NCBI GenBank assembly: GCA_030700155.1
Contig: JAUYJU010000027.1
Location: 5,954-69,953 of the forward strand
Length of the DNA: 64,000 nt
Direction: 5' to 3'
Source of the DNA: Candidatus Nanoarchaeia archaeon
Lineage (GTDB): Archaea > Nanobdellota > Nanobdellia > SCGC-AAA011-G17 > JAUYJU01
The notes under the pieces were generated by a model, which ran no database searches, was not told where the DNA came from, and was given only the letters and a program-made list of their open reading frames with translations. Both the position numbers and the translations under genes were made by a program. Shown here piece by piece: positions 4,906 to 50,592 of this stretch (positions are counted from its first letter, which is position 1; every line of letters begins with the position of its first letter).

Positions 4906-5357
4906 TTAACAGCTTTAAAATATTCTTTAACTCTAGAAACAACGCTCTTAATAAGATATTCTTCGATTTTAGAATCAAACAAGACATGCAAATCTTCAAA
5001 TTCAGTTATCCTATACTCATTTTTTATCTTTTCTGCAATAAGTAAATCTCTTAATCTTTTAAGTTGTCTTCTTATATTACTTCCGGCAACACCTTTTAAA
5101 TTAAGTTTATTTTTTTTCCTAAGGTTAATTACTTCATCTTTTACTTGTTCAGAGTTCATCATTAATTTTTTTACTTTGGCATCTAATAATGCATGTAAAA
5201 CATCAACAACAACATCTCTCGAATCACCAGGTTGTAAAAGTCCAGTAGATAGACAAAGCTTTCTTATCAAATCCCTTCTAGACATATCATAAGGTTTCTC
5301 ATAACGTCTGAAAGTAAATTCAGAGAGGGGTAAATCCCTTGAGATAGTTTTTGGCAT
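4902..5357 (-). CDS. Hypothetical protein, possibly a winged-helix DNA-binding protein
   Basis: 151 aa. Overlaps the downstream gene by 4 nt, suggesting an operon. No strong motif. Confidence 0.3.
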   Translation of the reverse strand: MPKTISRDLPLSEFTFRRYEKPYDMSRRDLIRKLCLSTGLLQPGDSRDVVVDVLHALLDAKVKKLMMNSEQVKDEVINLRKKNKLNLKGVAGSNIRRQLKRLRDLLIAEKIKNEYRITEFEDLHVLFDSKIEEYLIKSVVSRVKEYFKAVK

Positions 5358-34662: not shown

Positions 34663-34746
34663 GCAGGGGTGCCGGAGTGGTCAAACGGGCTGGGCTTAGG
34701 ACCCAGTAGCTTAGTGCTTACGCAGGTTCGAACCCTGTCCCCCGCA
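34663..34746 (+). tRNA. tRNA-Leu (anticodon UAG), with an A3-C70 mismatch in the acceptor stem
   Basis: Type II tRNA with a long variable arm. Anticodon stem CTGGG/CCCAG with loop CTTAGGA. TΨC arm GCAGG/TTCGAAC/CCTGT. Acceptor GCAGGGG/CCCCCGC has one A-C mispair. Confidence 0.8.
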
Positions 34747-34787
34747 TATTTTACTTTTTCTTATGCGTGCACTAAACAATATAAACC

Positions 34788-36059
34788 ATGTTTGGTTGGG
34801 AGCATATTATGGCAGAGGACGATATATACAAGAGCAAGGCACGCTATGAGAAGATAATTAAAAATCTTAGCTTATTAGCAGTAAAACCAGAAAACGGCTC
34901 TAGAAGAAAATATTATTGCAAGAACATTAATAATTTAGAATGTTTTAAACAAATGTGCAAGATATTTGAAGTTAAAGATACTTCATACATAAGAAGAATC
35001 AGATTATTTAAGAGCTTAATATTTATCGTAGATTCTACAGAAAAAGACCTTAAAAAATGTGAAAGAGAAGATGTCAACGAAATTGTAGCTCGAGGTCATA
35101 AGACATATAACACTCCAAAAACCAAAGAAGATATAATTAGGGATCTTAAGTACATGTGGAAATGTCTATTTCCAGAAAAAGATGAAAAAGGCAGAGTCGA
35201 TGAAACAATTGTGCCTTATACAGTCAGACATTTATCACCTAAGGTTGATAAGAGCAAACAAAAAAGACGCAAGGATAGATTAAATATTGAGCAGTTGGAG
35301 AAGTTGATGAACTTCTTTAGCAGAAGCCCAATGATGCAGTTTTATATTGCTTTAATTATTGAAAGTCTAGGAAGACCTCAAGAGTTAAGCTATCTTCGTA
35401 TTAGTGATTTAGAAATCCACGACAATACTTATGCTAAAATTTATGTTTCTGAACATGGAAAAGAAGGCACTAAGTTTTTACAATGTATTGATAGCTACCC
35501 TTACTTATTAAAATGGTTTACAGTACATCCATTTAAGGATAATAAAAATGCTTTTTTGTTTATTGCTAGTGGAAGAGAAGATAATCAATTTACTCCTGTA
35601 AATGCAACAAAGCAACTGCAGAAAGCTTGTGAGAGATTGAACTTGCCAAGAGTTACTGCTTACTCTCTTAAGAGAAATGGGGTAACATTTGCTAGATTAA
35701 GAGGAGAAAGTGATGTAGAGATACAGCATAAAGCAGGCTGGACTTCTACAAAGCAGATTAATACTTATGACCAAAGTAATGCAGAAGATGTGCTAAAAAA
35801 TCAATTAGCCAAGCGTGGGTTGATAAAAGATAAAAACTATGATATGTTTACTCCTAAGCAGAAAACTTGTTTATGTGGTGAAAATCTTGGCTTTGCTGAA
35901 AGAATATGCCCTAAATGCAAGAGACTTATTCATCAAGAAGATATTAAAAAACAGATGAATGCTGATAACTTAACAACCCAAGTGTTAAAGAAGATAGGTG
36001 AGCAGAATAAAGAATTAATATTAAAAGCTATGGCTGAATTGGGGGTGAGAAATGTTTGA
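34788..36059 (+). CDS. int: Tyrosine recombinase/integrase
   Basis: The C-terminal catalytic region shows an R...HxxR...Y pattern (AYSLKRNGVTFARLRG...HKAGWTSTKQINTY). Extra C-x2-C...C-x2-C tail. Located adjacent to the tRNA. Confidence 0.8.
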   Translation: MFGWEHIMAEDDIYKSKARYEKIIKNLSLLAVKPENGSRRKYYCKNINNLECFKQMCKIFEVKDTSYIRRIRLFKSLIFIVDSTEKDLKKCEREDVNEIVARGHKTYNTPKTKEDIIRDLKYMWKCLFPEKDEKGRVDETIVPYTVRHLSPKVDKSKQKRRKDRLNIEQLEKLMNFFSRSPMMQFYIALIIESLGRPQELSYLRISDLEIHDNTYAKIYVSEHGKEGTKFLQCIDSYPYLLKWFTVHPFKDNKNAFLFIASGREDNQFTPVNATKQLQKACERLNLPRVTAYSLKRNGVTFARLRGESDVEIQHKAGWTSTKQINTYDQSNAEDVLKNQLAKRGLIKDKNYDMFTPKQKTCLCGENLGFAERICPKCKRLIHQEDIKKQMNADNLTTQVLKKIGEQNKELILKAMAELGVRNV

Positions 36060-36075
36060 TTTTATTCTTTCCTAT

Positions 36076-36342
36076 CTAAATGCTCAACCCCTTCTGCACC
36101 ACATATCTCAAAGCAGAGCTTATAGAAACTTTATAAGAAACAGCTCTATTTTCTAATTGTTTCCATAGTTCGTCTTTACAGAAGACAACCCTTCTTTTTT
36201 GAATAGAATTAGGCATAATGTCCTCTTCAGCTAACTTGAAGGTTTTAAGATTGTTATCTTTCTTTGATTCTTCTAATAATCTTCTAAAGAACTGAATAGA
36301 TTGAGGCTCAAATACATGTTCCTTATTTTCTTTTGTTTCCAT
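36076..36342 (-). CDS. Hypothetical small protein
   Basis: 88-aa ORF inside the element. Confidence 0.25.
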   Translation of the reverse strand: METKENKEHVFEPQSIQFFRRLLEESKKDNNLKTFKLAEEDIMPNSIQKRRVVFCKDELWKQLENRAVSYKVSISSALRYVVQKGLSI

Positions 36343-36545
36343 GTTGTTCTATCTCGATTTACCCATTTTAAACCCTGACTTTAATATTAATATATTATTA
36401 ATTTATTAACGTTAACAAATGTCCTCTATGTCCAGTATGCCACTTAGGTTACAAGGATATAGGTCAAGCTTTATATAATTTAGGCGACGTGCACGTGCAC
36501 CTAAGCTTAAAAATACAATAAACTAGATTCTTTTCATGTTTTAAA

Positions 36546-37352
36546 ATGTCAAACAACGACACATTTCCAGCCATAGTATTTTGTTTTGTTATTCTGATTA
36601 CCTTTAATGAATTTCTAAATCCAATTTTACAGGATTTTCTTGCTGTGGACTGGAAGCGAATAGGCATTATCTTTGGTGCTGTTGTTGGAATTTTGATTTT
36701 AGCCTTTTTTACAATAAGAAATATTATTTTGAAGAAAAAAGTAAAAGAAGGCTATATTCCTTACAGTAATCCAGAACCAGAAGAGAATGAAGAACGTCTG
36801 ATTGAAGAGGTTGAAGAACCTGAAGAGCGAGTTATTGAGCAACCTGTTCATAGGGTAGTTAATATTCGAGTAGATGAAACTAAAGGCTTCTTTAAGAAAT
36901 CTGAAATAACTGATGATGAAGTTACATACCTAAAGAATAAAGGATATATAGAAAGCACTCATATGAGCATAGTTACTAAATCTATGGAAAGATATTTGCT
37001 AAAACCAGCTTCTAACGAAAGCCCTAGTCACTTTTTCTTAATACAAGACATTTGTAATTATATTAAGAAATTCACAGACAAAGTCTGGACGTATAATACT
37101 GTTAAGCCTGATATTGTTTTCATTGATAAACGTGGAAGAAAGGTTGCTATTGAAGTTGAAACAGGAAAAGTATTGAAATATAAACCAGAAAGATTACCTC
37201 AAAAAGTTAAACACATGACTGAGAATTATGATGACTGGTTTTTTGTGGTTACAGATGGCAATTTGGTAAGAGAATACAAGAATTATGGTAAAACCTATGA
37301 AAAAAGAAGTATAACTAAAATTCTAAGCAATCTTGTAAGTGGCACAAATTGA
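36546..37352 (+). CDS. Membrane-anchored protein with a PD-(D/E)xK nuclease-like C-terminal domain
   Basis: Two N-terminal transmembrane segments. The C-terminus (VKPDIVFIDKRGRKVAIEVETGK) resembles a restriction-endonuclease-fold core (D...E-x-K). Confidence 0.4.
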   Translation: MSNNDTFPAIVFCFVILITFNEFLNPILQDFLAVDWKRIGIIFGAVVGILILAFFTIRNIILKKKVKEGYIPYSNPEPEENEERLIEEVEEPEERVIEQPVHRVVNIRVDETKGFFKKSEITDDEVTYLKNKGYIESTHMSIVTKSMERYLLKPASNESPSHFFLIQDICNYIKKFTDKVWTYNTVKPDIVFIDKRGRKVAIEVETGKVLKYKPERLPQKVKHMTENYDDWFFVVTDGNLVREYKNYGKTYEKRSITKILSNLVSGTN

Positions 37353-37501
37353 GCTAGAAGCCATACTTACAAGGAATTCTGGCACTACAGCGCTTTTAGT
37401 CAGTAGACATAATAAGGCTATCAGCCAAGTCATTGTGGAAAACGTCTAGTGATAAGGAATTTTGATGTTTTAACTGTTTTAAGAGGCTGGTTAAACTAAG
37501 T

Positions 37502-38581
37502 TTATGTAGTTTTTAATGGTCGGTGTAAGTTAACAATTCTAGCAATAACCTCTTTTCGCAGCCGATATGTATTCGCCCATATAGCGTAACCAAACCAACC
37601 TTGCAGACCTTCTAAAATATTATCTTTAACTAGGACTCCTTCTTTCAAGAGTATTAACTTCTCATTAAAATCTCTTTCGAACCTTCTTTTATTATTTTTT
37701 CTCAACAACCTATAATAATAAAAGTTTTTATAGCCCAAGAATGTTACACCGTTCTTTAAAGGGATTATCTTAGATTTATCTGAATGTAGTTTCAGTTTTA
37801 AACTATTCATGAGATAATAATCTATTTTTTGCTTGTAGCTTTCAAGAACATCTTTCTGTTGGTGCATTATTACAAAATCATCAACATATCTTATATAATA
37901 TCTTGCTCTGATTTCCTGCTTAACAAAGTAATCCAATTCATTAAGATAAATATTAGCAAAGAATTGAGAAGTTAAATTTCCAAGAGGCATCCCTTTGCCA
38001 GCTATCTTTATATCAAAATTGTTTAATATCTGCTTAATTAACCATATAACTCTCTCATCTTTTATTCTTCTCTCTAAAACGTTTAATAAAACCTCATGAT
38101 CTACAGTTTCAAAATAATGTCTTATATCTGCCTTTAAGATATATCCTTTAACTGAATTGTTATCCTTAGCGTTTTTAACCAGCCTGCCGTTATTTGAAAC
38201 TTTTCTTTTGAATTTATCAAATCTTAAAATTGCATTGTGAGTTCCTTTGTTAATTCTGCTCGCATAAGAATCATGAATAAATCTCTTTTCAAATATTGGG
38301 CTAATAATATTAACTAAAGCATGATAGACAACTCGGTCTCTGAATGAAGATGCATGAATTGTTCTTGTTTTTGGGTCTCTGACAATAAACCTCTTTAATT
38401 GCTGCGGTTTATACGTTTGATATTCTAACTCTTGTTTTAATTTATTTAACTCGTTTAATAGATTAGCTTCAAATTCTTTGACATATGGTCTCTTTGATTT
38501 TCTCTTTTTAGCCTTTTTGAAAGCCAATTCTAAATTTTTAAAAGAGTATAGCTCGCCGTATAAGTTATTGTAAGTTTTCAT
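37502..38581 (-). CDS. Reverse transcriptase of a diversity-generating retroelement (DGR)
   Basis: RT motifs 1 to 7 are present, with YVDDFVIM (the YxDD box). The DGR-diagnostic motif MPLGNLTSQFFANIYLNELD (I/LGxxxSQ) replaces the QGxxxSP motif of group II introns. The likely true start is MKTYNN at 38581. The 49 codons the ORF track places upstream are the template repeat read through. Confidence 0.85.
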   Translation of the reverse strand: MKTYNNLYGELYSFKNLELAFKKAKKRKSKRPYVKEFEANLLNELNKLKQELEYQTYKPQQLKRFIVRDPKTRTIHASSFRDRVVYHALVNIISPIFEKRFIHDSYASRINKGTHNAILRFDKFKRKVSNNGRLVKNAKDNNSVKGYILKADIRHYFETVDHEVLLNVLERRIKDERVIWLIKQILNNFDIKIAGKGMPLGNLTSQFFANIYLNELDYFVKQEIRARYYIRYVDDFVIMHQQKDVLESYKQKIDYYLMNSLKLKLHSDKSKIIPLKNGVTFLGYKNFYYYRLLRKNNKRRFERDFNEKLILLKEGVLVKDNILEGLQGWFGYAIWANTYRLRKEVIARIVNLHRPLKTT

Positions 38582-38609
38582 TTTGTGATGTCCTATAACT
38601 TGGGTTATT

Positions 38610-38710
38610 CCGAGCTCCGGATTCTCGTCTTTTTTAGATTTCGAATTCTGCGGATTCCTGTTGCAATTGAGGTTAGCCCTATCGGAATTCGCATTGAACC
38701 TCGCGACAGC
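38610..38710 (-). repeat. DGR template repeat (TR), directly upstream of the RT
   Basis: A segment of about 100 bp is homologous to the 3' ends of the two target genes. Every alignable difference lies at a T on the plus strand, which is an A on the minus (coding) strand. Confidence 0.75.
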
Positions 38711-38956
38711 TTTTAGCAGGTTCATCAAGTTTCACCATAACTTCAGGTTTCACTCCAGCTTCCCCAAGACCATCATTGCTACTAACTGTTGTTATTGTAT
38801 TTTATGGCGTTTAGACTTAAATCGTCCACGCACTATGAACCTGCGTGTAGCCCAAGTCGTCGTTTTTCATTGATTTTCCTTTTGGTTATTAAGGAAAACT
38901 CCATACGACATCTAGGACGAAATAAAAAAGATTGATTAGATTAATAAATTTACTGT

Positions 38957-39748
38957 TTAAATTTTTGCGCGCGCCTGACGTACCCCGAGCTCCGGACCCG
39001 AACTCCGCGGATCCCAGTAGCAATCGAGGAAAGCCCTACCGGAACCCGCAACGAACCCCGCGACGCTTCCATCTCTTGGATACCAATAATATAAGTCACC
39101 TTGCTTAATATCTCTTGGAGGCAAACCTTGGATAGTTGCCCTTTCTAACCAATCATCTAAATTTATTCCTGGAGTTCTATCTTCCATTAAACATTCTTCC
39201 AATGGCTCGGAATATTTCGGTTGCGACTGTCCGTTGACAAACATATGACCATAATCAACAACTAATTCACTTCTTCTCAAAAGACCTTTGGATTGTTTTC
39301 TGAACTTTGCATCAAGCCATTCTGCCCTATAGGGGCTTCTAACTGTTAAAATTTCGTCAACAATCTTAGCCAACTTAGCACGATCTACTCTATTACCGCT
39401 AGCGTCAAAAGGTTTTCCAGTAGTTATTAAATTCAAGAAATCAACATATTGTCTTATTGTAAGCATAAAGTTTCCTTCATTATGCAAAATTTCCTGTGTT
39501 TTATGCCAATTATTATTGTGATGAACTACATTAGCAGAAACTAACAAATCAGGATAAGAATAACTGCCATAGGTTTTTCCTTCTAGAATTATATATTCTT
39601 TTTTATTTGATATGTTTGAAGCAGGGATTATTGCTGGAATTATTTTACTTTCTGGCTGAGTTTCAACTTTGGGAACTTTAGATTCTTCCAAGTACTTCTT
39701 CAATTCTGCTTCTCTGTCCTTTCCGAAAATATTATCTGGTATTTTCAT
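38957..39748 (-). CDS. DGR target protein 2 (lectin-like or FGE-sulfatase-fold C-terminal domain carrying VR2)
   Basis: 263 aa. It shares its N-terminal 24 aa and its C-terminal ...LGVRQARAKI with target 1. The C-terminal region is encoded by VR2. Confidence 0.75.
   Translation of the reverse strand: MKIPDNIFGKDREAELKKYLEESKVPKVETQPESKIIPAIIPASNISNKKEYIILEGKTYGSYSYPDLLVSANVVHHNNNWHKTQEILHNEGNFMLTIRQYVDFLNLITTGKPFDASGNRVDRAKLAKIVDEILTVRSPYRAEWLDAKFRKQSKGLLRRSELVVDYGHMFVNGQSQPKYSEPLEECLMEDRTPGINLDDWLERATIQGLPPRDIKQGDLYYWYPRDGSVAGFVAGSGRAFLDCYWDPRSSGPELGVRQARAKI
38985..39066 (-). repeat. DGR variable repeat 2 (VR2), carrying an in-frame 18-nt deletion relative to the template repeat
   Basis: Matches the template repeat except at template-A positions. 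It is flanked on the 3' side by a GC-rich palindromic element (GGCGCGCGC) that is conserved in VR1 but absent from the template repeat, a candidate initiation-of-mutagenic-homing site. Confidence 0.75.
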
Positions 39749-41469
39749 TGCTTTGTAAACCTCTTGTAGGTATTTGTAGCTGTATTAACCATCAATTTTG
39801 AAAGTTCTTCTCCTGAACTTACGTAAAACACAGGCAGACCCATACCTTCTAAATCTTGGGTAAATCTATTTGAACCGCCAATTTGAATATGTGCAAAATA
39901 GTTTTCTTTAGCTAATTTTTCAAATTCGGACTTAGCTGAACTCCAGTTTTCTATTTCTCCGTCTGAAATAGATAAAACAAAACTCTCTCTGCCTTGCAAA
40001 GCATCAACTAATGTCCTTGCATCCAATTTTGTACCTCCCCAATCTGGAGATAAAGCTAATTTTCTTAATTGATGTATATTTTTAAAATCTGATTCTTCAT
40101 ATCTTGTGCTTGAAGAAAATAAAGCAAGTCCGTGTCCAATATACTGAGCTATTCCCTGCGCTTGTAAAAACTGTTCAATTCCATAAAAACCAAGTAAAGC
40201 ATAGTGATACTTACTATTGTCGCCCCAAGGAATAAAAGTTTGGTCTCCCTGATGCCCATTAATTCCTTCTTTCATAGTTCCTGAATTATCCAAAACAACC
40301 ATCTTAAAATCTGGGAAAGACTTTCTTTGGAATTTTGCTTTTTGAGCTATTGTTAAAGGTGTTCTTTGGTGTCCAAATGTAACTCCTTCATCATTAGCAT
40401 ATAATTTAGATTTTATTTTTCTTACGTCATCAGTTTCAGGATCAAAAGCTCTGAAATTTAATGGTGCTATTGCTAAACTTTGTTCTCTAGTCATTGCTTC
40501 AACTTCCACAGGTATTGATCTTGCTAATCTTTTATATAACAAATCTAGCTGTTCGTGTGATTCAAAATTTGGAGATAAACCATCCCCAGATTTATAACGC
40601 CCATAAGTAATTTCTTCCTTGCCTTCTTTTGCTGAAGCTTTTTCTTCCAATCCATTTCCTTCCTGTTCCTTTTCACCATTTTGATAGGCTGAAAGTCTTT
40701 CTGTTGGAGGTATTTCCAGCAAAGGTGCTAATGCAGCTGCAAATTGTGAAGCCATTTCAGGCCATTCTGATTTATTGAAAAGTTTAACTGTATCTACTTT
40801 ATCTAATGATAATTCCTTTACTACTTTATTTACAGCTTCTTCAACTTTTACAGCTTGTTCAATTTCTTTGGTATTATGTCTTTTTAATAAAGCTTTATCT
40901 GAATTATCTCCCCATAAATGCATATTTAATTTAACAAACGCTTCATAAAAAGGAGTGTAACCTTTTTGCCCTGCTCTTTTACATTGAAAACCTTCGTCGT
41001 CCCAGAATAAAACTTGTCCTGAGAAATTTCCAGTATATTCTTTACATCTTGTATTGTTAATCAAATCTTCAAAAGCATTTGCAACATAACCAGCCTGCCC
41101 TTGTTTATCTTCTGGCAGTGCTTCTTTGACTGCTTCTAAAATTAAATCATGATTATAAACATCATAAGGGCATCCAAAACCTGAATGGAAAGGCAGCTCC
41201 CAATGTCCTAATTCGTGATGCAGAATATCAGTTAATAATTGTTTTTTGCCGTCTTCAATCTTCTTTTTTCTTGCGTAAGCTTTTTGTCTTCTGTCAGTTA
41301 TTGGATTAAATCCTCTATTAATATTTAATTCAATGCTCCAGTTTCTTGGATCAATATGTGCTGAAACGTTTTTATCTGTATCATCATACTCATTTAATTT
41401 CAACGTTCCGCTAACTAGACCTATACTGTTCTTTATCCTATTTAATTCTTGAATTAAAGTCATTTTCAA
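39745..41469 (-). CDS. Protein with an HExxH motif (metallopeptidase-like) and a C-terminal von Willebrand factor A domain
   Basis: HHELGHWELP motif. The vWA domain has a MIDAS motif, VVLDNSGTM. 574 aa. It overlaps both target genes by 4 nt. Confidence 0.6.
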   Translation of the reverse strand: MKMTLIQELNRIKNSIGLVSGTLKLNEYDDTDKNVSAHIDPRNWSIELNINRGFNPITDRRQKAYARKKKIEDGKKQLLTDILHHELGHWELPFHSGFGCPYDVYNHDLILEAVKEALPEDKQGQAGYVANAFEDLINNTRCKEYTGNFSGQVLFWDDEGFQCKRAGQKGYTPFYEAFVKLNMHLWGDNSDKALLKRHNTKEIEQAVKVEEAVNKVVKELSLDKVDTVKLFNKSEWPEMASQFAAALAPLLEIPPTERLSAYQNGEKEQEGNGLEEKASAKEGKEEITYGRYKSGDGLSPNFESHEQLDLLYKRLARSIPVEVEAMTREQSLAIAPLNFRAFDPETDDVRKIKSKLYANDEGVTFGHQRTPLTIAQKAKFQRKSFPDFKMVVLDNSGTMKEGINGHQGDQTFIPWGDNSKYHYALLGFYGIEQFLQAQGIAQYIGHGLALFSSSTRYEESDFKNIHQLRKLALSPDWGGTKLDARTLVDALQGRESFVLSISDGEIENWSSAKSEFEKLAKENYFAHIQIGGSNRFTQDLEGMGLPVFYVSSGEELSKLMVNTATNTYKRFTKQ

Positions 41470-42158
41470 ATTTTTGCGCGCGCCTGACGTACCCCGAGCA
41501 CCGGACCCCCGTCCCTAGATCCCGAATACCGCGGACCCCTGTCGCAATCGAGGCCAGCCCCACCGGAACCCGCATAGAACCCCGCGACAGCTCCATCTCT
41601 TGGATACCAATAATCAAAATCGCTGCCTTTTGTTGTTGGGAAGCCTTGCTTGTTGAAACTTCCTAAATCAACTTTACAATCTTCCATCAAACAAGCTTCT
41701 AAAGGTTCTTTATTTTGAGGTGCTAATTTACCATTAATTATTCTATGATTATAACTAATCTGATCTGCATTTTTTAAAGTTTTGAAAGATGCATCAAGCC
41801 ACTCTGCTCTCCACGGATCTCTTACTTCTGTTATTTCTTTGTATAATCTTTTGAAATCAGCATTTCCATTTTTTAATATTGCTAAGAAGTCAGCAAATTC
41901 TCTCAAATTAAGCATTCTTGCACCTTCTGAATTTAATGATTCATGTGCTTTGTACCAATCTTCATTAAAATGAGTTCTTTGTTTAGATACGTAGAGATTA
42001 TGATTAGGCAGATAAATATAATCTCCTTTATCAAAACCTTCTAGATTTATTTGTGGTTTAGGTTGTTCTTTAACTTCAGGCTGTCTTTTAGATTCTTCCA
42101 AGTACTTCTTTAACTCTGCTTCTCTGTCCTTTCCGAAAATATTATCTGGTATTTTCAT
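41466..42158 (-). CDS. DGR target protein 1 (paralog of target 2; the C-terminus carries VR1)
   Basis: 230 aa with the same N-terminal MKIPDNIFGKDREAELKKYLEESK and the same C-terminal tail as target 2. Confidence 0.75.
   Translation of the reverse strand: MKIPDNIFGKDREAELKKYLEESKRQPEVKEQPKPQINLEGFDKGDYIYLPNHNLYVSKQRTHFNEDWYKAHESLNSEGARMLNLREFADFLAILKNGNADFKRLYKEITEVRDPWRAEWLDASFKTLKNADQISYNHRIINGKLAPQNKEPLEACLMEDCKVDLGSFNKQGFPTTKGSDFDYWYPRDGAVAGFYAGSGGAGLDCDRGPRYSGSRDGGPVLGVRQARAKI
41494..41592 (-). repeat. DGR variable repeat 1 (VR1)
   Basis: Roughly 100 bp aligned to the template repeat with substitutions only at template-A positions, plus a 3-nt length change inside an A-homopolymer tract. 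Confidence 0.75.
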
Positions 42159-43347
42159 CAGCTACCCTCTCGAATAAATTTTTCATGAAAGACCATCTTC
42201 CTGTAAACTCTCCAGCTAACTTCTCGCTTTTCTTGCCTTTAGCAGCTAATGCAAAAGCTGCAGCAATTTTACCTTTTCTATCATCGCTGAACTCTGTTTG
42301 AGTAGTTGTAATTACAGCGTCCATTGCTTTGTAATGATCTTCTCCATAAGTTTGTCTTACTAAAGCCTCGTTTAATATTCCTGAATAAGCTGAAATAAAT
42401 TTAAATGCTTGCATCATTGATTCAAAGTTATCAGGTGCTTCAGCGCCTTTTTCCTGAACAATCTGATCCAAAGCTTGGCTTAAAGATATAACAGCTTTTG
42501 CAGCTCTTGGTGAAACTGGCAGTATCAAAGCAGCATCTGAACCTTTTTCATGATTTTCCACAGCATTAGGCCATGCAGATTTCATTCCTATCTTGCTTTT
42601 ACCGCCGTCTAAATAATCAAGGCCGTGAATTAAATATGAAGCTATTAACAACTTATTAAATGGTACTTCAGTTTCATTTAATTTTTTGTAAGCTTCTTTT
42701 ATTTCTTCAGTCTTATCTACAGTTTCAGAACCAAAATTAACTCTAGGGTTCCTATCACCAGCAAGCATTTCAAGAGTGTCAATAGGCTGAGGTCTAAAAT
42801 AATCAGTATCTAGAACTAAATGCATTCTATCCTTTAAAGCCCTTCCTAAATCATTTGAAGACTCAGTAAATTGCTGCCCTATATTTCCTGTAGCAATACC
42901 AACTGAATATCCAGAACCAAGAGGATAAGCCTTTCCATCTATTTCTATAAATCCATCAAATAAGTTAAACAACTGAGCACGAACAGCAGGTACACAGTTA
43001 GGCAGTTCATCAACAACAGTTAAATTATAATCGATTTTATCTGTTAATTCTTTAAACTTTACAGCTCCATCTCCTTGTCCTTTCAATGCTTTCAAAAACT
43101 CAGGATTAACTTGCTGGAATAATTCTCTTGTATCCATATCATTTCTTCCTAAAATAAATAAAGACTTATCTCCAAAATAATGAACTACATCTCTTGCTAA
43201 TTGAGTTTTACCAGAACCAGTATCACCCTGTAAGAATACGTTTAATCTTCCTCTTAGAGCAGCTTCTACCATATCATGCATGTAAATTGGAACTCCATTC
43301 AGTGTAGTCAATTCAGTACTATTTCTGTAATTCTTCGGTTTGAACAT
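42142..43347 (-). CDS. MoxR-like AAA+ ATPase
   Basis: Walker A VFLQGDTGSGKT and a Walker B/sensor region VVDELPNCVPAVRAQLFNLFDG resembling the MoxR DEINRA segment. 401 aa. Overlaps target 1 by 17 nt. Confidence 0.65.
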   Translation of the reverse strand: MFKPKNYRNSTELTTLNGVPIYMHDMVEAALRGRLNVFLQGDTGSGKTQLARDVVHYFGDKSLFILGRNDMDTRELFQQVNPEFLKALKGQGDGAVKFKELTDKIDYNLTVVDELPNCVPAVRAQLFNLFDGFIEIDGKAYPLGSGYSVGIATGNIGQQFTESSNDLGRALKDRMHLVLDTDYFRPQPIDTLEMLAGDRNPRVNFGSETVDKTEEIKEAYKKLNETEVPFNKLLIASYLIHGLDYLDGGKSKIGMKSAWPNAVENHEKGSDAALILPVSPRAAKAVISLSQALDQIVQEKGAEAPDNFESMMQAFKFISAYSGILNEALVRQTYGEDHYKAMDAVITTTQTEFSDDRKGKIAAAFALAAKGKKSEKLAGEFTGRWSFMKNLFERVADENTR

Positions 43348-43489
43348 TTTGATCCTCCTTAATAACGCTTATTTTTACTTCTACTATTGTTTTTGGTTTA
43401 AGCTCGTCTTTTAAGAAGCTGGGAATAACTATTACAGCTTGATTTCCGTGCTTTGCTATTTTCTTTGTTATTGTGTATATTTTTGACAT
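43319..43489 (-). CDS. Small AbrB/MazE-like (swapped-hairpin) DNA-binding protein
   Basis: Not in the ORF track. The 56-aa translation MSKIYTITKKIAKHGNQAVIVIPSFLKDELKPKTIVEVKI... resembles the AbrB/SpoVT fold. It overlaps the ATPase start. Confidence 0.35.
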   Translation of the reverse strand: MSKIYTITKKIAKHGNQAVIVIPSFLKDELKPKTIVEVKISVIKEDQNVQTEELQK

Positions 43490-43608
43490 TTTTATGTATA
43501 GATTATATGTATTTTACTACTTTAAAGTGGTATATAAAGCTTTCTATAGAACTAGCTTTGCACAAGTAAAATCAAAAAGTTTATAAATATGTAACTATTA
43601 GACATTAA

Positions 43609-43896
43609 TTGATAAACATGACACAAGTCTTAGAGCAACAAAGAGTAGCACATAGCCCAACACTAGCTACAATCCAGATGGTAGAAGAAACTATTCATGG
43701 AGCAAAAGAAGTCCTGAATATTGCAGAAATCAAACGTAGACTTCCCAAAAAAGTTAACCATAATACCCTAAAAGTAATACTTAGATATTTGCAAGAAATA
43801 GGCAAAATAGAATTTACTCCAGATGGAGTTATTTGGATTTTCGTGCCAAAAGAAGACGTAGCAGCCATACTAAGTAAAGGCCGAACATGGATTTAA
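43609..43896 (+). CDS. Putative antitoxin, partner of the downstream RelE/ParE-like toxin
   Basis: 95-aa ORF overlapping the toxin gene by 10 nt, the typical antitoxin-then-toxin order. Confidence 0.4.
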   Translation: MINMTQVLEQQRVAHSPTLATIQMVEETIHGAKEVLNIAEIKRRLPKKVNHNTLKVILRYLQEIGKIEFTPDGVIWIFVPKEDVAAILSKGRTWI

Positions 43897-44261
43897 AAGA
43901 CAAACAAAAAATTGTACAGGTTATTGGAACTGCAGAAACAGCACTAACAAAATTAGAAGAAAACATTCATGCACTAGAAGCTCAAGGCAAAACGCCACCA
44001 AAATCAGATGCACAATTGTTAAGAAGTATTGAACGTGCTTTAAAAACACTTGAAGTAAATCCCTTTGTAGGAGATAATGTTGCAGGCAGATTATGGCCAA
44101 AAGAATTTCAAAATCTTCCAAATTTATTTCGACTCGAACTCTCGCAATTTTGGAGATTACTTTATTATGTTATAGGCGATGAAGTAAAAGTAATTAGTGT
44201 TGTCTTCGAAATTTGTGATCATGATTACTACAACAAACTATTTGGTTATAAAAATAAATAG
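43887..44261 (+). CDS. RelE/ParE-family toxin
   Basis: The C-terminal region FWRLLYYVIGDEVKVISVVFEICDHDYY resembles the RelE/ParE core. 124 aa. Confidence 0.5.
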   Translation: MDLKDKQKIVQVIGTAETALTKLEENIHALEAQGKTPPKSDAQLLRSIERALKTLEVNPFVGDNVAGRLWPKEFQNLPNLFRLELSQFWRLLYYVIGDEVKVISVVFEICDHDYYNKLFGYKNK

Positions 44262-44363
44262 TGCACATTCACGTGCCACCTTACCAAAAGTTATTTATAG
44301 AAGCTATGCTACAAATATATGGGTTCGCATAAGAAATCTCTCGCGAGGCATGTCCCCTGCATA

Positions 44364-45164
44364 TTAATGCCTTTCTAAATAAACCACTAAAAACAATTTA
44401 TACCAAATCAAAGCACTTACAAGAATTAACAAGGCAACAGTCCAAGGTAAAACATTCATTAAACTAAAAGTACCTATAATCTTATTAGTATAAATATTAA
44501 AGAAAATAAATATAGTCGTCATAAGCAAAATAAACATGGGTATGAATAAAGGAACTAAAAATTTAGCTTTTCTAACTGAAATATTAAAAGCCCTCTTTAA
44601 AGTATTTTTTAGAGTATCATTTCTAATTGTAAATCCATAAAATACAAACAGATAATAAAATATTAAAAATGAAAATACTAAGTAACCTAAAAAAGGCATT
44701 AATTTTATTTCAAATACACTTGTAATTGAAGAAATTGTATAATAACCAACCATAAATAGTAAACCTAAAGCAATAAAACTAACAATAAAAAATCTAGTAA
44801 AATATAATTTTAAATTATTTAATTTATTAGTTAATAAAGACCAGCTAAATCCTTGAAAAACGCTCCATAAAACAATAGTCATTATTGGAATAGCCCAAAA
44901 TAATATTAAAGTTTGATTATTCAATGCTCCAATCTGATCTAAAGTTTGTTGTAATTGAGGCAAAGCTTCAGGAGACTGCTCTAATAAAGCGCCCAACTGT
45001 TGTAAAGCTGGAGATAAAGTACCTAACTTCAACATATTAGAATGGATTTTCATTCTAGCTAAAACTAAAAAAGCCAAATAAACAACTGCAAAAAGTATAT
45101 TAATCATAAATAGATTAAGAAATTTCGCTTTGAACAATTTATTTACTTTATGAAGATTACTCAT
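44364..45164 (-). CDS. Polytopic membrane protein (last gene of the giant-protein operon)
   Basis: 266 aa with at least six transmembrane helices. Its start overlaps the stop of the 1811-aa gene. Confidence 0.4.
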   Translation of the reverse strand: MSNLHKVNKLFKAKFLNLFMINILFAVVYLAFLVLARMKIHSNMLKLGTLSPALQQLGALLEQSPEALPQLQQTLDQIGALNNQTLILFWAIPIMTIVLWSVFQGFSWSLLTNKLNNLKLYFTRFFIVSFIALGLLFMVGYYTISSITSVFEIKLMPFLGYLVFSFLIFYYLFVFYGFTIRNDTLKNTLKRAFNISVRKAKFLVPLFIPMFILLMTTIFIFFNIYTNKIIGTFSLMNVLPWTVALLILVSALIWYKLFLVVYLERH

Positions 45165-48100
45165 TTTTTTCCCAAGCTACAAATTCCTTTATTAAATCAA
45201 AATATTCTTTCTCAAGATTTTTAATTATCTCAGGAGATAACTCGTTTATAAAATTATTCCCACGTCCAGGGGTAATTACTTGACTTGAAAGTTTACCATT
45301 TAAATTACTATTAAAGAACCACTTCCTATTATCCAAAGTAACTTCTAGATTAATCGAATTGCTAGGTTCATAATAGTTAACAGTAAAACTTCTGCCGCGT
45401 ATTTCAGTCTCTTCCAAGGAGTATTTAAAAATTCCAGAACCACTATGAGTTTCTGTTTTAAGTGTATCTGAATCAGCTTTTACAATTTCAATTAAATCTT
45501 CAAAAATAGCTACTTTATTTTGAATTATTATTTCATCTTCTGTAATATCATATGAATAGGATGAATCAAATTCTCCAACATCAAAAAGTAGTTCCATAAA
45601 ACCATTTAAATCTTGAACATCAGCTAAGCTAAACAACCTATTAGTTTTCGGAATCTTCAACCCAGCCAAAGGACCAGCTTTATCACCATACCTTATATTT
45701 CTTTTAGAAGCTTCTCCAACTGCTTTTAACAAATTAGACATTTTATTATTCGCATCAGAACTTTGTTTTAGATAAATTCCAACCACTTCCTCAACTAATT
45801 CAGTTTGTATTTCCGCTTCTTGTTCCTCTTCATACTGTTTCTTAAATGCTAAGAAATCTTTTTCTCCAAGATATGTTTTTGCTCTGTCTTCCACTTCAGC
45901 ATCCGGAAGATATGTCGGATCCATTACTTCTTTAGCATCTTCTTCTGTCTCTCCATACTCAGTCATTAATTTAGTGAATATAAGTTGTCTCAATGCAGTT
46001 AAATAAGCTGATTCTACTTTTGCAGTTGGAGTAGGAAGACTTGTGAGTGCAACTCCCCACCTATTATAAGTATTTCCTATTTCAAACTGAGCAACCATTA
46101 CAATATCTAAACTTAAGGATTTATCCATAACTACTTTTAAATTTTCCAGGGCAAGACTAAATTTAGATTGAGTAGTAAGCTCTTTAGCTTGTTTTATTTT
46201 GTCTATAGCAGTTTTATCATCTAAGGCATACTCACTAATAGATTTGTTCAGTCCTTCTAATTCAACTTTCTTTTGTGTTTCATATAATCCTTTATCTAAC
46301 TGTTCTCTTGAATATTCCTGTTGTAAAGCTTGTCTAGCACTTGGCTTATACAACCAGCAAGTTCCTAAATCTCTTCCATCATCATCAGTTCCACAGTTTC
46401 CAACAATTTCCCAATTAGCAGAATCAGTACCTACTCCAGGATTATCTCTTGCGCAAGTTCTTACAATACCTAACTGACCAGCACTTGGTATTCCAGGTAA
46501 AGTGCTAGCTGCAACACCTAAAGCACCAGTAGCTTGATATTCTCCTTTTATACTTCCATAATTTTCAGGAACACATTCTTTCTCTGTTCTGATTTGTTTG
46601 GCAGCTTGATTCTTAACATATTGCTCACTCAAATAATTCATTCCAAAATCAGTTGTAACTTTTCCTGGCCCACAATTTTGTTGTGTTCCATAAAGTTTAG
46701 TAGTTGTGATTATACAAATCTCTGTAAATCCTTCGGGCATTACTCTTTCTAAATTTTCACTGGAATATTCTCCAGCTTTGATTTGTCTATTCGAAACAAT
46801 TGTTATTGGATTAATCAATGGTTTTCCAGGAGCGGGTGTTCCTCTCATAAATAGGCTATAAGTTGTATCTTCATTTTCTCCTGCATAAACATGATAAAAT
46901 ATAGTATACAATGATTGCGGGAATTTATCAACATCTGAATAAGGAACCGCATCAAAGAACGCAGTAAACTGAGGAGGACTTTCAGGTCTTGATACACTGT
47001 TTAATAAATCTCCAACGCTAGGCGATTTTCCAAATATTGCTGCTTTACAAATTTCAGCACCAACTTCTCCAAATCCAGCACCAGCATAACCTGCAAACAC
47101 ATTCTTAGCATAACTCTCAGTAAAGTAACCAACAGCACCTACTGAACTATCTACAGCAGTTGAGAATGCACTATACTCTCCCCCACCAGAACTTGCTCCA
47201 GATACTTTATCTATTAATAATCCTAAAACTCCTTCTTTGGTTCCTAATAATGCTACTCCTTCTCTCCATAATATTTCACATAAGTAATAAGATCTTAATC
47301 TATCACAAATTCCAACTGATCTATCATTCAATTGAGATTCTTTCAAACATTGATTGTAACCTTGTAATATTGATTTTATGTTCTGCAATCCAGCAAGTAT
47401 TCCAGTTAAACAAACCGGCATAACTACATCTCCACCAAACACAACCCAGTTAGGCGCACACAATACTGCTGAACCAACTATTCCAGTTTCAACTACATTA
47501 TCAACCTGCCACTTTCCTCCTAAATTACATCTTGTTGGAGGACAAATTACAGGATCACAAGCATTAAACAATAATTTACAATCTTCAGCACTCATATACT
47601 CAACACAACTTGGTCCTTTAGCTATAGGCGCTGATTTAGCTACAGCATATCTTCCTAACGAACAACCAATATTTGCAGTAGTTGGAATTGCATATCCTGA
47701 TTCAACTTTTTGTCTGCTTAATTGATTATTCATTCCAGCTATGCAATTAGGTAACTGAGATAAACTTTTCTTTAAATTTTGATCATCTGTAGTAGCCTGA
47801 ACAGTATTAATATCACCAACTCTAGCATCTCCAGGACCACCCATTGGAGCATTTGCATAAGGCCTCTCATAAACATAACTTTCTTTAGAATCAATTCTTC
47901 CACCGGTGGTATACTTAACATCAGCATAGTGTCTTGAATCAAGACTTATCTTATCTAAACTACCATCATTCTTTCCCTCAGTAATTACTGTAATCTGACC
48001 TTTATGTTCCTCTTCAGCTTTAGTCTTCTTGCCATCAGCAGTTTGAAGAGCCGGATTTTTAGCTTCTACATATCCCTTTACATAATCAGCATATGCAGTA

Positions 48101-50592
48101 TCATCAGCCACGTTAACTGCACTTAAAGCCTTCTTATACTCTTCTTTATAAAAATAAGAAGCATAATTCGCTTGTAATTGTTTTTGTCTTGCAGTAGCTA
48201 TAATTTCTCTTCTATTACTCTGATCCTTCCAAGTATTCTCTAAATTTCCCTCACCAGCACTAAATCCAATCAAAAGTTTTTCCTGTTCTGTTAACTCACT
48301 CCACTGTTTCGTTTGCATAGATGAAAGCTGGCCATCAACTTTTACTTCTTGGGCCCTCATATCATTCGCTAAATGATTTTTAACAACTACTTCATCAGCA
48401 GGTTTAGCTTTTGCATTTTCAAAACTATAATAATAATCTTTGGCAAAGGCTTCATCAGTTTTAGCAAGTTCTGCAGCTACAGCATTATTTTTATAATTAC
48501 CTTTATTAATATCTTCAACTATTTTCTTAGTTCGTTCGTAATCTTCATTGTATTCTTTTATATTCTCAGAAACATATTGATCAAAACTTCCTTGATAACC
48601 AGAAGCTCTCTGCTGATTGTATTTCTCTTTCCATTCTGGATTTACTTTATTTCTAGTTATAGCTGCGGTGCTTCCAAACACACCAGAAAGCAAGTTCTTA
48701 GCAAACAAAGTTCCAAAAGTTATCAAACATAAATTAGTCCAAAATTTATGCAATTTTTCCATCTGATTAATGTACTTATCTAAATCGTTTATTATGTCAG
48801 CAGTTTTGTTAATTTCTTTTTCAATAGTACTACTAAACAGGGGAATTCCAACAGCTCTTTTCTCAACAGGAATATGTAATTTAAAATTAGTATCACTTGT
48901 TCCTCTTTTAACTTCAGGGAATACACTTAAATAAGCTATTCTCTTTAAATCTAAACTCTTTAACTGTAAATCAATTTTCTTTCCAGAAATTTCAACTTGT
49001 TTTTGATCAAATCCAACATTAATCCTAGTGTTTCCAGATTGTAACAACACATCTCTTGCTCTTATCTGCATTACTTTATAATTAGTTCCGCCTAAATCGA
49101 AAGTTGCACCAGTTTCAACGTTTTGAGATTTGCCATTGATTAAAATTTCAGCTTTAGGCTTCTTCACATCTTTAGCTCTTACAACATCAACTACACTTAT
49201 AGTGACATATTCAGTACCCAAATCACCTAAAATCTTAGTTTCAGATTTAACTTTATTCAAAGCGTTCAATTTTTCCTGTATCAAATCAGCATCTTTCATG
49301 GAAGCAGCATAATTGCTTACTAAAGTCTGCGCAGCTTCTTTTTGTTTGTTAACAAAACCTAAAGTACCATATATCTCTGCTATTTCTCTTTGAGCTTGAG
49401 CAGCTAAATTTCCACTATAACTGTCTACTTTAATATTCCTATCAGCTTCTCTGACAACTTTTTCATAATTAGCTATGGCATAGGCATAAGCTTCTCTTTG
49501 ATTAGTTGGAGTTGCCTTAAGATTAGATCTGGCTTTATTCAATAAAGTTTCAAATTGAGATTCTTCTGTTGTTTGAGTAGTCTTAACCTGTCCAAATTCA
49601 ATATTAAACTTCTCATTAGCCCCATTTATTGAATTTCTTAGTGTAACAACTGCTTTCTTATCATCAGAAGTTATATCATTAACAACCCAATCAGAATTAT
49701 CATATAATCTATCTCCTTTTATCAATCTGACAATATCAGAACCCCCTGTAACTTTCTGAACTAAGAAAACAACTTCATCTTCTTGTCCTCTAATCTGATT
49801 TAATTTTATTCTAAATCTATCATAAGCTCCACTTAATCCAGCTAGACCTTGAACTCCAGTCAAAGGACCAGAAGTTGAACCTTCACTTAATCTTATAGGT
49901 TCTCTAATTACTCTGCCTTGATTATCATACAAAAATAAAGTAGCACCATTCTCATCAATAATATGCGCTCTTAAAAATCCGCCAGAAAAACTATACTGGT
50001 CTCTTTGAGGTAGCCAATCTTGCTCAGTCAAGGCAGGCATACTCAAATCTTTTCTGCTCATAGTTATAGTTTCAGAAATATCAAAGTCAATCCTAGCTTC
50101 AACATCAATATTGATTACATCAGGAACATCATGCTCTTTAGGTATTTTTGAAATTGGAATTACTAAGTAACCAAAATTCCTATAATCAATAAAACCTTGC
50201 GCAGGAGGTAAATACCTTATTGCTCTAACATTGGGAGCTTTTTTACTCGGAGGATCAACAGAAACATTGACAGATTTAATAGCAACATTTCTTATGGCAG
50301 GGATAGTAATTGTAGGATTTGTAGGAGTTCCAATTAACGAAGCATAAACATAAACATCTTGTTCTTCCAATAAACCAGCACGTAAAACTTTAGGTTGATA
50401 AGAATCAACTTGAACTAAAATATCCTCTCCATAAGTTCCAGGCTCTTTAATACCTAACTTGGTTTCTTGCAACTCTTGCCCAAATTGTTGTAAGGTCTGT
50501 TCACCTTGAGTCTGAGCATAAACACTAGCAGAAGATATTGGTATCATAACTACCAAAAACATACAAAATAATGCATTCAATCTTTTTTTCAT
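45157..50592 (-). CDS. Giant secreted or surface protein (1811 aa)
   Basis: N-terminal signal peptide (MKKRLNALFCMFLVVMIPISSASVYAQ), a Cys-rich central region and a long uninterrupted ORF in AT-rich DNA. It overlaps the 683-aa gene by 4 nt. Confidence 0.6.
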   Translation of the reverse strand: MKKRLNALFCMFLVVMIPISSASVYAQTQGEQTLQQFGQELQETKLGIKEPGTYGEDILVQVDSYQPKVLRAGLLEEQDVYVYASLIGTPTNPTITIPAIRNVAIKSVNVSVDPPSKKAPNVRAIRYLPPAQGFIDYRNFGYLVIPISKIPKEHDVPDVINIDVEARIDFDISETITMSRKDLSMPALTEQDWLPQRDQYSFSGGFLRAHIIDENGATLFLYDNQGRVIREPIRLSEGSTSGPLTGVQGLAGLSGAYDRFRIKLNQIRGQEDEVVFLVQKVTGGSDIVRLIKGDRLYDNSDWVVNDITSDDKKAVVTLRNSINGANEKFNIEFGQVKTTQTTEESQFETLLNKARSNLKATPTNQREAYAYAIANYEKVVREADRNIKVDSYSGNLAAQAQREIAEIYGTLGFVNKQKEAAQTLVSNYAASMKDADLIQEKLNALNKVKSETKILGDLGTEYVTISVVDVVRAKDVKKPKAEILINGKSQNVETGATFDLGGTNYKVMQIRARDVLLQSGNTRINVGFDQKQVEISGKKIDLQLKSLDLKRIAYLSVFPEVKRGTSDTNFKLHIPVEKRAVGIPLFSSTIEKEINKTADIINDLDKYINQMEKLHKFWTNLCLITFGTLFAKNLLSGVFGSTAAITRNKVNPEWKEKYNQQRASGYQGSFDQYVSENIKEYNEDYERTKKIVEDINKGNYKNNAVAAELAKTDEAFAKDYYYSFENAKAKPADEVVVKNHLANDMRAQEVKVDGQLSSMQTKQWSELTEQEKLLIGFSAGEGNLENTWKDQSNRREIIATARQKQLQANYASYFYKEEYKKALSAVNVADDTAYADYVKGYVEAKNPALQTADGKKTKAEEEHKGQITVITEGKNDGSLDKISLDSRHYADVKYTTGGRIDSKESYVYERPYANAPMGGPGDARVGDINTVQATTDDQNLKKSLSQLPNCIAGMNNQLSRQKVESGYAIPTTANIGCSLGRYAVAKSAPIAKGPSCVEYMSAEDCKLLFNACDPVICPPTRCNLGGKWQVDNVVETGIVGSAVLCAPNWVVFGGDVVMPVCLTGILAGLQNIKSILQGYNQCLKESQLNDRSVGICDRLRSYYLCEILWREGVALLGTKEGVLGLLIDKVSGASSGGGEYSAFSTAVDSSVGAVGYFTESYAKNVFAGYAGAGFGEVGAEICKAAIFGKSPSVGDLLNSVSRPESPPQFTAFFDAVPYSDVDKFPQSLYTIFYHVYAGENEDTTYSLFMRGTPAPGKPLINPITIVSNRQIKAGEYSSENLERVMPEGFTEICIITTTKLYGTQQNCGPGKVTTDFGMNYLSEQYVKNQAAKQIRTEKECVPENYGSIKGEYQATGALGVAASTLPGIPSAGQLGIVRTCARDNPGVGTDSANWEIVGNCGTDDDGRDLGTCWLYKPSARQALQQEYSREQLDKGLYETQKKVELEGLNKSISEYALDDKTAIDKIKQAKELTTQSKFSLALENLKVVMDKSLSLDIVMVAQFEIGNTYNRWGVALTSLPTPTAKVESAYLTALRQLIFTKLMTEYGETEEDAKEVMDPTYLPDAEVEDRAKTYLGEKDFLAFKKQYEEEQEAEIQTELVEEVVGIYLKQSSDANNKMSNLLKAVGEASKRNIRYGDKAGPLAGLKIPKTNRLFSLADVQDLNGFMELLFDVGEFDSSYSYDITEDEIIIQNKVAIFEDLIEIVKADSDTLKTETHSGSGIFKYSLEETEIRGRSFTVNYYEPSNSINLEVTLDNRKWFFNSNLNGKLSSQVITPGRGNNFINELSPEIIKNLEKEYFDLIKEFVAWEKNE

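Follow-up and report, generated by a model that had tools for sequence, protein, structure and literature searches.

Hypervariable lectin-fold targets of a diversity-generating retroelement are encoded together with a MoxR-like ATPase and an HExxH/vWA protein in a DPANN archaeon

Layout of the cassette and diversification of its targets

The window analyzed herein, a 64,000-nucleotide (nt) stretch of contig JAUYJU010000027.1 of Candidatus Nanoarchaeia archaeon (GenBank assembly GCA_030700155.1, positions 5,954 to 69,953), is a segment of an AT-rich archaeal chromosome (about 32% GC) that also encodes ribosomal proteins S8e and L37e, an Sm protein, TFB, and a GAN/Cdc45-like DHH protein. It carries a diversity-generating retroelement (DGR) cassette in which two hypervariable target genes are interleaved with the genes for a MoxR-like AAA+ ATPase and for a protein having both an HExxH motif and a vWA domain (Table 1). 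Five overlapping minus-strand genes had been noticed in an initial model-made reading of the window (hereafter the sequence-only reading), and they were indeed found to constitute a compact operon-like block, in which neighboring genes overlap by 29, 17, 4, and 4 nt. Beyond target 2, where that reading had placed them, the reverse transcriptase (RT) gene and the template repeat (TR) were likewise located, and the TR proved to be preceded by the structured RNA motif RT-16. For three of the genes, exact copies in the databases are annotated as hypothetical or AAA proteins.

Comparison of the TR with the variable repeats (VRs) of the two targets revealed that the substitutions were concentrated at adenines. 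In VR1, 22 of the 31 template adenines were changed and none of the 68 other bases (Fisher p = 3.5e-15), and in VR2 the changes affected 16 of 23 adenines and 3 of 61 non-adenines, all three of the latter at the 5′ edge (p = 2.7e-9). Among the substituted adenines, 19 of the 22 in VR1 and 11 of the 16 in VR2 had become G; the remainder became T, and none was replaced by C. As expected for a DGR, 30 of the 34 TR adenines occupied the first or second position of a codon, and the reading frame was rich in Asn. The segment past the VR was common to both targets and unlike the TR, and thus behaved as expected for an initiation of mutagenic homing (IMH)-like element. Each VR was situated at the C-terminus of a ligand-binding C-type lectin fold, and the DGR is a genuine one. 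The G-biased substitution turns the VRs into GC-rich islands within the 32% GC genome. VR1 and VR2 were also 3 nt and 18 nt shorter than the TR, respectively, both in frame and within its A-rich stretch AAATCTAAAAAAGACGAG. The length of this segment in VR2 equals that in the TR of a related locus, L077 (related loci are designated by L numbers), and either a TR insertion postdating the last rewriting of VR2 or slippage of the RT at this stretch might account for it.

The RT was identified not only by the RVT_1 match listed in Table 1 but also by a PADLOC RT profile (5e-52) and a partial group II RT match (5e-46). Its translation likely starts at the ATG at 38581, and the orthologues align from residue 1 of that start; a longer, TTG-initiated open reading frame (ORF), extending to 38728, would run through the TR. 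The TR ends approximately 28 nt upstream of the RT start, and RT-16 lies directly 5′ of the TR in the window. The same abutment was seen in L077, the sole related locus with a mapped TR, and RT-16 was found directly upstream of the RT gene in seven of eight related cassettes. Given that RT-16 abuts the 5′ end of the TR and that only about 28 nt separate the TR from the RT gene, this DGR clade has its conserved structured RNA upstream of the TR. Through the cassette, the orphan Rfam motif RT-16 (RF03019) gains a genomic role.

Diversification in natural populations was observed in related cassettes rather than in the genome of the window. Two loci from replicate groundwater assemblies, L075 and L078, differed at 24 positions in 8802 nt, and all 24 fell inside two VRs of about 70 nt (5081-5148 and 7576-7643), one belonging to a target upstream and the other to a target downstream of the vWA gene. 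Likewise, 13 of the 16 differences between L014 and L096 were confined to one VR (2476-2543). These comparisons of near-identical contigs, taken from replicate or related samples, constitute direct evidence at the population level that, in this type of cassette, targets on either side of the vWA gene are diversified.

The two targets are 46% identical to each other (target 2, P0342). As the sequence-only reading had stated, they share an identical N-terminus of 24 amino acids (aa), whose underlying 72 nt are 97% identical, and an identical C-terminal tail, which comprises 10 aa (LGVRQARAKI). The lectin-like fold proposed for them was also borne out, the nearest structures being those of the DGR variable proteins TaqVP, AvpA, and TvpA. 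Searches of Pfam, NCBIfam, PADLOC, and PHROGs with the targets gave no match, nor did single-sequence and profile searches of PDB sequences, by which AvpA was not reached.

In every locus, all target paralogues started with a near-identical peptide of approximately 20-22 residues (hereafter the N-peptide) with the consensus I-P-[DK]-x-F-M-G-K-P-I-[EK]-G-[AS]-[LM]-E-R-V-L, followed by a variable low-complexity linker. The identity of the N-peptide was 81% within a locus and 38% between loci, and the remainder of the same paralogue pairs was 36% identical. Among codons for identical residues, 20% differed in the peptide versus 36% in the rest of the gene; this stronger conservation of synonymous sites indicates that gene conversion contributes to the uniformity of the peptide. 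An N-terminal tag would be expected to show such locus-wise concerted evolution if it directed docking to, or processing by, a protein whose gene belongs to that locus.

Table 1. Positions of the cassette genes and elements, of the adjoining features in the window, and of RT-16 in related loci
Feature	Positions	Strand	Remarks
Small ORF, 56 aa	43319-43489	minus	Putative DNA-binding regulator, AbrB/MazE-like; first gene of the block
MoxR-like AAA+ ATPase, 401 aa	42142-43347	minus	AAA_5; Walker A/B
DGR target 1, 230 aa	41466-42158	minus	Shared N-peptide, low-complexity linker, C-type lectin-fold domain ending in VR1
VR1	41494-41592	minus	Variable repeat of target 1
HExxH + vWA protein, 574 aa	39745-41469	minus	HExxH and MIDAS conserved across the family
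DGR target 2, 263 aa	38957-39748	minus	Layout as in target 1
VR2	38985-39068	minus	Variable repeat of target 2
RT-16 structured RNA motif (Rfam RF03019)	38708-38916	minus	91.5 bits; gathering score 50
TR	38610-38711	minus	Alignment with VR1 and VR2
DGR RT	37502-38581	minus	RVT_1 1.4e-20
Membrane-anchored protein, 268 aa	36546-37352	plus	Convergent with RT; recurring neighbor of this DGR type
Tyrosine integrase	34788-36059	plus	Phage_integrase 2.2e-6; phrog_1 integrase 6.4e-15
tRNA-Leu(TAG)	34663-34750	plus	3′ end (34736-34750) is the attL repeat copy
Gene pair, 95 aa + 124 aa	43609-44261	plus	Putative winged helix-turn-helix (wHTH) antitoxin and ParE-like toxin; divergent from operon
attR, TGTCCCCTGCATATT	44351-44365	plus	Repeat of the tRNA-Leu 3′ end, 1 mismatch
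RT-16 in L001	10674-10841		
RT-16 in L003	11864-11996		
RT-16 in L008	3905-4079		
RT-16 in L027	13481-13681		
RT-16 in L036	7498-7672		
RT-16 in L053	4617-4790		
RT-16 in L077	11628-11780		

The ATPase and the vWA protein and their linkage with the targets

The ATPase matched the Pfam family AAA_5 (4.3e-9, 36.9 bits against a cut-off of 22), as did 55 of the 56 members of its family. The profile bpMoxR (PF20030), representing the MoxR domain of the MoxR-vWA-beta-propeller ternary systems, a sister system described in PMC7159879, was matched by 16 of the 56, and two orthologues 62-64% identical to the window ATPase reached its 27-bit cut-off. The MoxR-like character assigned in the sequence-only reading was thus upheld through AAA_5 and bpMoxR, but the AAA_3 family, named there for a profile check, was not, as no AAA_3 match was obtained. 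Walker A (GDTGSGKT) and Walker B (VVDE) motifs were identified together with SPRAAK in the lid; G44, G46, K47, T48, D113, and E114 were invariant in the family and the lid motif was conserved. Some family members have been annotated as "MoxR-like ATPase" by JGI. In addition, the ATPase is encoded alongside a vWA partner, as is typical of the MoxR family, the two genes being separated only by targets. A search of the PDB with the ATPase profile yielded weak matches to MCM-lid, Clp, and PEX1 only.

The 574-aa protein was confirmed to possess both the HExxH motif and the vWA domain with its metal ion-dependent adhesion site (MIDAS). It consists of a mostly helical N-terminal domain, which carries the HExxH motif, and a C-terminal vWA domain of Rossmann-like fold with a complete MIDAS. 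In an alignment at 21-43% identity, the MIDAS residues D394, S396, T480, and D503 were invariant and S398 was kept in at least 90% of the sequences. Residues H85, E86, and H89 of the HExxH motif were invariant in 75 close homologues, and among 57 distant ones each was either invariant or kept in no fewer than 90% of the sequences, so that the N-terminal domain can be regarded, at the level of this motif, as a putative zincin metallopeptidase. Pfam, NCBIfam, PADLOC, PHROGs, and PDB-sequence searches with the protein, both single and profile, gave no match. The Pfam VWA profile likewise did not match the window protein, and matched 5 of 57 divergent family members, two of them above the 23.8-bit cut-off. 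The family is a large one: it comprises over 400 members that are 53-82% identical and forms 414 clusters when grouped at 50% identity, and its named members derive nearly all from metagenome-assembled genomes (MAGs) of Woesearchaeota, Pacearchaeota, or Nanoarchaeota.

The synteny set consisted of 96 fetched loci. The genes were arranged in the order of regulator, ATPase, one to five targets, vWA protein, and one or two targets. The ATPase gene was found upstream of the 574-aa gene in 36 of 36 related Woese-/Pacearchaeota loci with enough flank, and the RT was present in all 11 related loci with large flanks. Of 54 loci, 42 had targets detectable by tblastn upstream of the vWA gene, and 36 of 42 had them downstream of it; the one "miss" that was inspected, L077, turned out to possess targets with a divergent middle domain, the same N-peptide, and the same VR. 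The ATPase-target-vWA-target linkage was thus kept in every related locus examined, and it is consequently very likely that the ATPase/vWA pair is functionally coupled with the targets. A chance juxtaposition was rejected on the 36-of-36 synteny. Moreover, the unit of RT-16, TR, and RT varied in position and orientation with the ATPase-target-vWA-target block remaining intact, an argument for these two proteins acting on behalf of the targets and not of reverse transcription.

The small ORF heading the block was present as called in the sequence-only reading, but the label "AbrB-like" given to it there was only weakly supported, the 56-aa product showing a weak ChpS match (E = 0.084) and one orthologue matching MazE_antitoxin at E = 0.008 (16.5 bits against a cut-off of 24.7). 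Of about 35 related loci, the equivalent position was occupied by an AbrB/MazE-like protein in about 10 and by an unrelated ribbon-helix-helix protein (RHH_1, 32.5 bits) in about 25. The presumed operon regulator has therefore been displaced non-homologously, and the occurrence of the ribbon-helix-helix protein at the same position in most related loci points to a conserved role of the leading gene as a small DNA-binding regulator.

Neither the vWA protein nor the ATPase had relatives among the 2.9 million viral contigs of IMG/VR. RT relatives with 38-44% identity were detected on IMG/VR contigs, and the viral RT loci contained no targets, ATPase, vWA protein, or RT-16; one of these relatives (L101) carries RT-14 instead of RT-16. 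The MAG from which the window was derived holds a second, paralogous cassette on another contig (Q8R00_01500/01505; P0002, P0122, P0243). Two separate cassettes per MAG were seen in some cases including this one (contigs L010 and L013), and two vWA-protein genes arranged in tandem with a target between them were seen in L072 (7251, 9807) and L094 (2, 1003).

The tRNA-Leu island and neighboring genes

The cassette resides in an island of approximately 9.6 kb (about 34747-44366) integrated at tRNA-Leu, with a tyrosine integrase gene immediately downstream of the tRNA gene and with the tRNA 3′ end repeated at the opposite boundary. This 15-nt repeat contains one mismatch and is the only other match in the window, where none was expected by chance in 100 shuffles; no exact repeats of at least 12 nt from the tRNA were found, and the bounding repeat therefore requires that one mismatch be allowed. 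The right copy is located in the intergenic gap after the ParE-like gene, and a degenerate stretch resembling a tRNA T-arm precedes it (44321-44350). Besides the complete DGR/ATPase/vWA cassette, the integrase gene and the ParE-like pair lie within these borders, as do two genes that are small or of unknown function. A tRNA-integrase adjacency beside the cassette was also observed in L001, in which the tRNA is accompanied by an integrase, a wHTH/ParE-like pair, a homologue of the 268-aa protein, RT, targets, the vWA protein, the ATPase, and the regulator. The search for att repeats in L001 and L007 yielded a weak AT-rich 12-mer only.

The 95-aa and 124-aa genes overlap each other, and the ParE_toxin match (E = 0.0065) was below the cut-off. 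The wHTH/ParE-like pair recurs together between the RT and the integrase in L001, and toxin-antitoxin genes surround other loci. The 268-aa protein has an N-terminal transmembrane helix (Kyte-Doolittle maximum of 2.79 at residue 39) and gave no Pfam or PDB match. Its homologues adjoin the RT gene in L014/L096, L036, L040, L047, and L051 and are placed elsewhere in the island of L001, and it is possible that this protein is a further DGR-associated factor. Its C-terminal motif PDIVF...IEVETGK resembles that of PD-(D/E)xK nucleases, by eye only. Just beyond the island, the minus-strand region 44364-52640 contains genes for a multi-pass membrane protein of 266 aa, for a protein of 1811 aa whose signal peptide is clear, and for one of 683 aa. 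Pfam matched none of the three, and these genes are typical of DPANN giant surface proteins.

Proposed function and relation to known systems

The balance tips slightly towards the interpretation that the hypervariable cytoplasmic lectin-like proteins are the recognition subunits of a MoxR-vWA-metalloprotease switch, which would represent an archaeal split-gene conflict system. The RT and the RT-16/TR RNA rewrite, by adenine-templated mutagenesis, the C-terminal ligand-binding face of the two soluble lectin-fold paralogues. In the proposed mechanism, the ATPase and the vWA protein may form a MoxR-vWA pair like CbbQ-CbbO or NorQ-NorD, to which each target paralogue would be docked by the shared N-peptide, acting either as a MIDAS ligand through a conserved Glu/Asp or as a substrate for the HExxH domain. 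Once the hypervariable face has bound a ligand, this would lead, via ATP hydrolysis, to activation of the metallopeptidase and proteolysis or to release of the target. The ligands would most likely be intracellular, e.g., proteins of viruses or other invaders, since the proteins bear no export signal, and a role in conflict or immunity is favored for this reason. The mobile, defence-island-like setting, comprising the tRNA-integrase arrangement, the bounding repeat, and the toxin-antitoxin-like neighbors, was also counted for the conflict-system interpretation. The anatomy of the cassette is near certain, whereas the defence role, which we purely infer, is much less so. A still more specific version, in which the cassette is a mobile, anticipatory, "antigen-receptor-like" immune module of DPANN archaea whose DGR-rewritten cytoplasmic sensors plug into the MoxR-vWA-metalloprotease switch by their N-terminal tag, is put forward tentatively.

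Several points weigh against the recognition-switch interpretation. It is synteny and analogy that connect the targets with the ATPase/vWA pair, and the PDB chains of CbbQ, NorQ, and RavA were not reached by the ATPase profile. The N-terminal HExxH domain was not matched to any peptidase family by sequence, and in the structure model the motif is situated at a helix end beside a low-confidence loop. The lack of signal peptides was judged by hydropathy only. No VMAP, TIR, caspase, trypsin, or other recognised effector was identified in the island proteins by Pfam and PADLOC. DPANN archaea are thought to be episymbionts, and the variable proteins might recognize a partner. Finally, CPR (candidate phyla radiation) and DPANN DGRs have been classed as unrelated to conflict systems (PMC10907252).

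An assembly or display function, in which a MoxR-vWA chaperone, as for the tail of Acidianus two-tailed virus or GvpN of gas vesicles, loads the lectins onto a host-binding structure, seems unlikely but has the best claim among the other explanations. Cell attachment or host interaction has been proposed in the literature for DPANN DGR targets (PMC6349945, PMC5006420, PMC10907252), and MoxR-vWA pairs are classic assembly or maturation factors (PMC7159879). However, surface display, which the sequence-only reading had considered, was not supported: none of the five operon proteins has a hydrophobic N-terminus or a transmembrane-grade segment (19-residue Kyte-Doolittle maximum ≤1.25), so that the targets, the ATPase, and the vWA protein are devoid of signal peptides and transmembrane segments, and archaeal clade-5 targets have likewise been reported to be without membrane features (Roux et al., PMC8144416). 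The multi-transmembrane protein and the 1811-aa signal-peptide protein just downstream were also counted in its favor, but the latter, giant secreted protein is encoded beyond the repeat that bounds the island at 44351-44365, and no homologue of it was present among the called neighbors of L001 and L003.

It is more doubtful still that the ATPase and the HExxH-vWA protein are retrohoming accessories that replace a missing Avd by remodeling the RT-RNA complex or the target DNA, rather than partners of the targets. AAA_5 also covers nucleic-acid-directed enzymes such as McrB, and the pair strictly co-occurs with the RT (11 of 11 loci), its two families having been found here only in such cassettes; nevertheless, the RT/RT-16/TR unit floats, whereas the ATPase-target-vWA-target block is fixed and translationally coupled, and the vWA/MIDAS and HExxH moieties are modules for protein binding and proteolysis. 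The cassette indeed has no Avd-like gene, as neither an ORF nor a Pfam match for an accessory protein (Avd, HRDC, MSL, CH1) was found in the island, but 29% of catalogued DGRs are without any accessory gene, so that such a gene is not obligatory (PMC5758913), and the virus-borne RT relatives do without both proteins.

A virus or provirus remnant, with receptor-binding proteins as the substrates of DGR diversification and tail construction as the task of the MoxR-vWA pair, would make the locus viral instead of cellular. It was rejected as highly improbable: the integrase at the tRNA with the bounding repeat, the RT relatives on IMG/VR contigs, and the precedent of an archaeal-virus MoxR/vWA pair cited in PMC7159879 would fit it, but the island of about 9.6 kb contains no capsid, portal, or terminase candidates (its PHROGs matches being the integrase and a weak one to the ATPase), the ATPase and vWA families are absent from IMG/VR, and the viral RT relatives carry no cassette protein and no RT-16.

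Returning to the recognition-switch interpretation, its closest counterparts are the VMAP ternary systems (Kaur et al., 2020, PMC7159879; Dore et al., 2024, PMC10907252). The sequence-only reading did not recognise the locus as a described DGR context. The MoxR-vWA and DGR theme is in fact already known in bacteria, since DGR-diversified lectin/FGS domains occur within MoxR-vWA ternary conflict systems of cyanobacteria, gammaproteobacteria, and other multicellular bacteria (PMC7159879, PMC10907252), but the DPANN archaeal version appears to be undescribed, according to a literature search not extending to the survey of Paul et al. (2017, Nat Microbiol 2:17045). The cassette shares with the VMAP ternary systems an ATPase of the MoxR-like type, a vWA/MIDAS protein, a peptidase, which in the cassette is a candidate, and a mobile neighborhood, as well as a DGR (RT and TR) hypermutating a C-terminal lectin-fold domain and often several targets or loci per genome. 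It differs from them in its DPANN host, theirs being mainly multicellular bacteria and the systems being reported absent from CPR/DPANN DGRs; in having its lectins on separate small proteins with a common N-peptide instead of fused to vWA; and in its candidate peptidase, an HExxH domain fused to vWA in place of a trypsin or caspase on the VMAP protein. Since no VMAP, Trypco/EAD adaptor, or TIR-type effector domain was detected in the cassette by Pfam and PADLOC, it is not a member of the VMAP ternary family and only works like one.

The nanoarchaeotal DGRs including that of AvpA (Paul et al., 2015, PMC4372165; Handa et al., 2016, PMC5006420) resemble the present one in their DPANN host, in that each element has several targets, which are small and show neither membrane nor other domains that can be recognised, and in an IMH-like VR 3′ end, part of the DGR cis-elements, inside the coding region; text searches of both papers brought up no ATPase, vWA, or operon context. 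The CbbQ-CbbO, NorQ-NorD, RavA-ViaA, and BchI-BchD pairs similarly consist of an AAA_5-type ATPase encoded with a partner having a C-terminal vWA domain with intact MIDAS, but they act on metabolic enzymes or in cofactor insertion, with no DGR, hypervariable client, or HExxH, and it is in the cassette that target genes separate the ATPase and vWA genes. In common with Bordetella phage BPP-1 (mtd-avd-TR-brt), the cassette has an RT beside the TR and mutagenesis specific to adenines, and its lectin-fold genes end in a VR that is followed by a conserved, GC-rich segment. It is without avd, and its RT-16 RNA lies 5′ of the TR, whereas the BPP-1 RNA is a 3′ spacer; it also serves two to five cytoplasmic targets in a cellular, archaeal host in contrast to the one tail-fibre protein of BPP-1.

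The targets of DPANN DGRs have been described as lacking recognisable domains, their role being acknowledged as an open question (PMC8144416), and they have been left without context (PMC8144416, PMC5006420). The DGRs of CPR/DPANN have further been stated to lack conflict-system domains (PMC10907252), probably because the vWA protein escapes Pfam. With the present cassette, these enigmatic variable proteins of archaea gain their first functional context: an ATPase/vWA/HExxH machine is what at least one large class of DPANN DGR targets is hard-wired to, by which their role becomes experimentally testable. Five genes, one RNA, and one RT make up a compact set of parts for reconstitution, and the binding partner of the N-peptide, cleavage of the targets, and the ligands of the lectin face are the questions raised. 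The finding also extends the theme of DGR and MoxR-vWA from multicellular bacteria to ultra-small archaea, where it had been reported absent. If the RT belongs to clade 5, as reported for archaeal DGRs, the coupling of clade-5 DGRs with MoxR-vWA would be ancestral and common to ultra-small archaea and multicellular bacteria rather than a specialty of the latter, and if the immune-module interpretation holds true, the abundant DPANN DGR targets would be intracellular sensors instead of host-attachment proteins.

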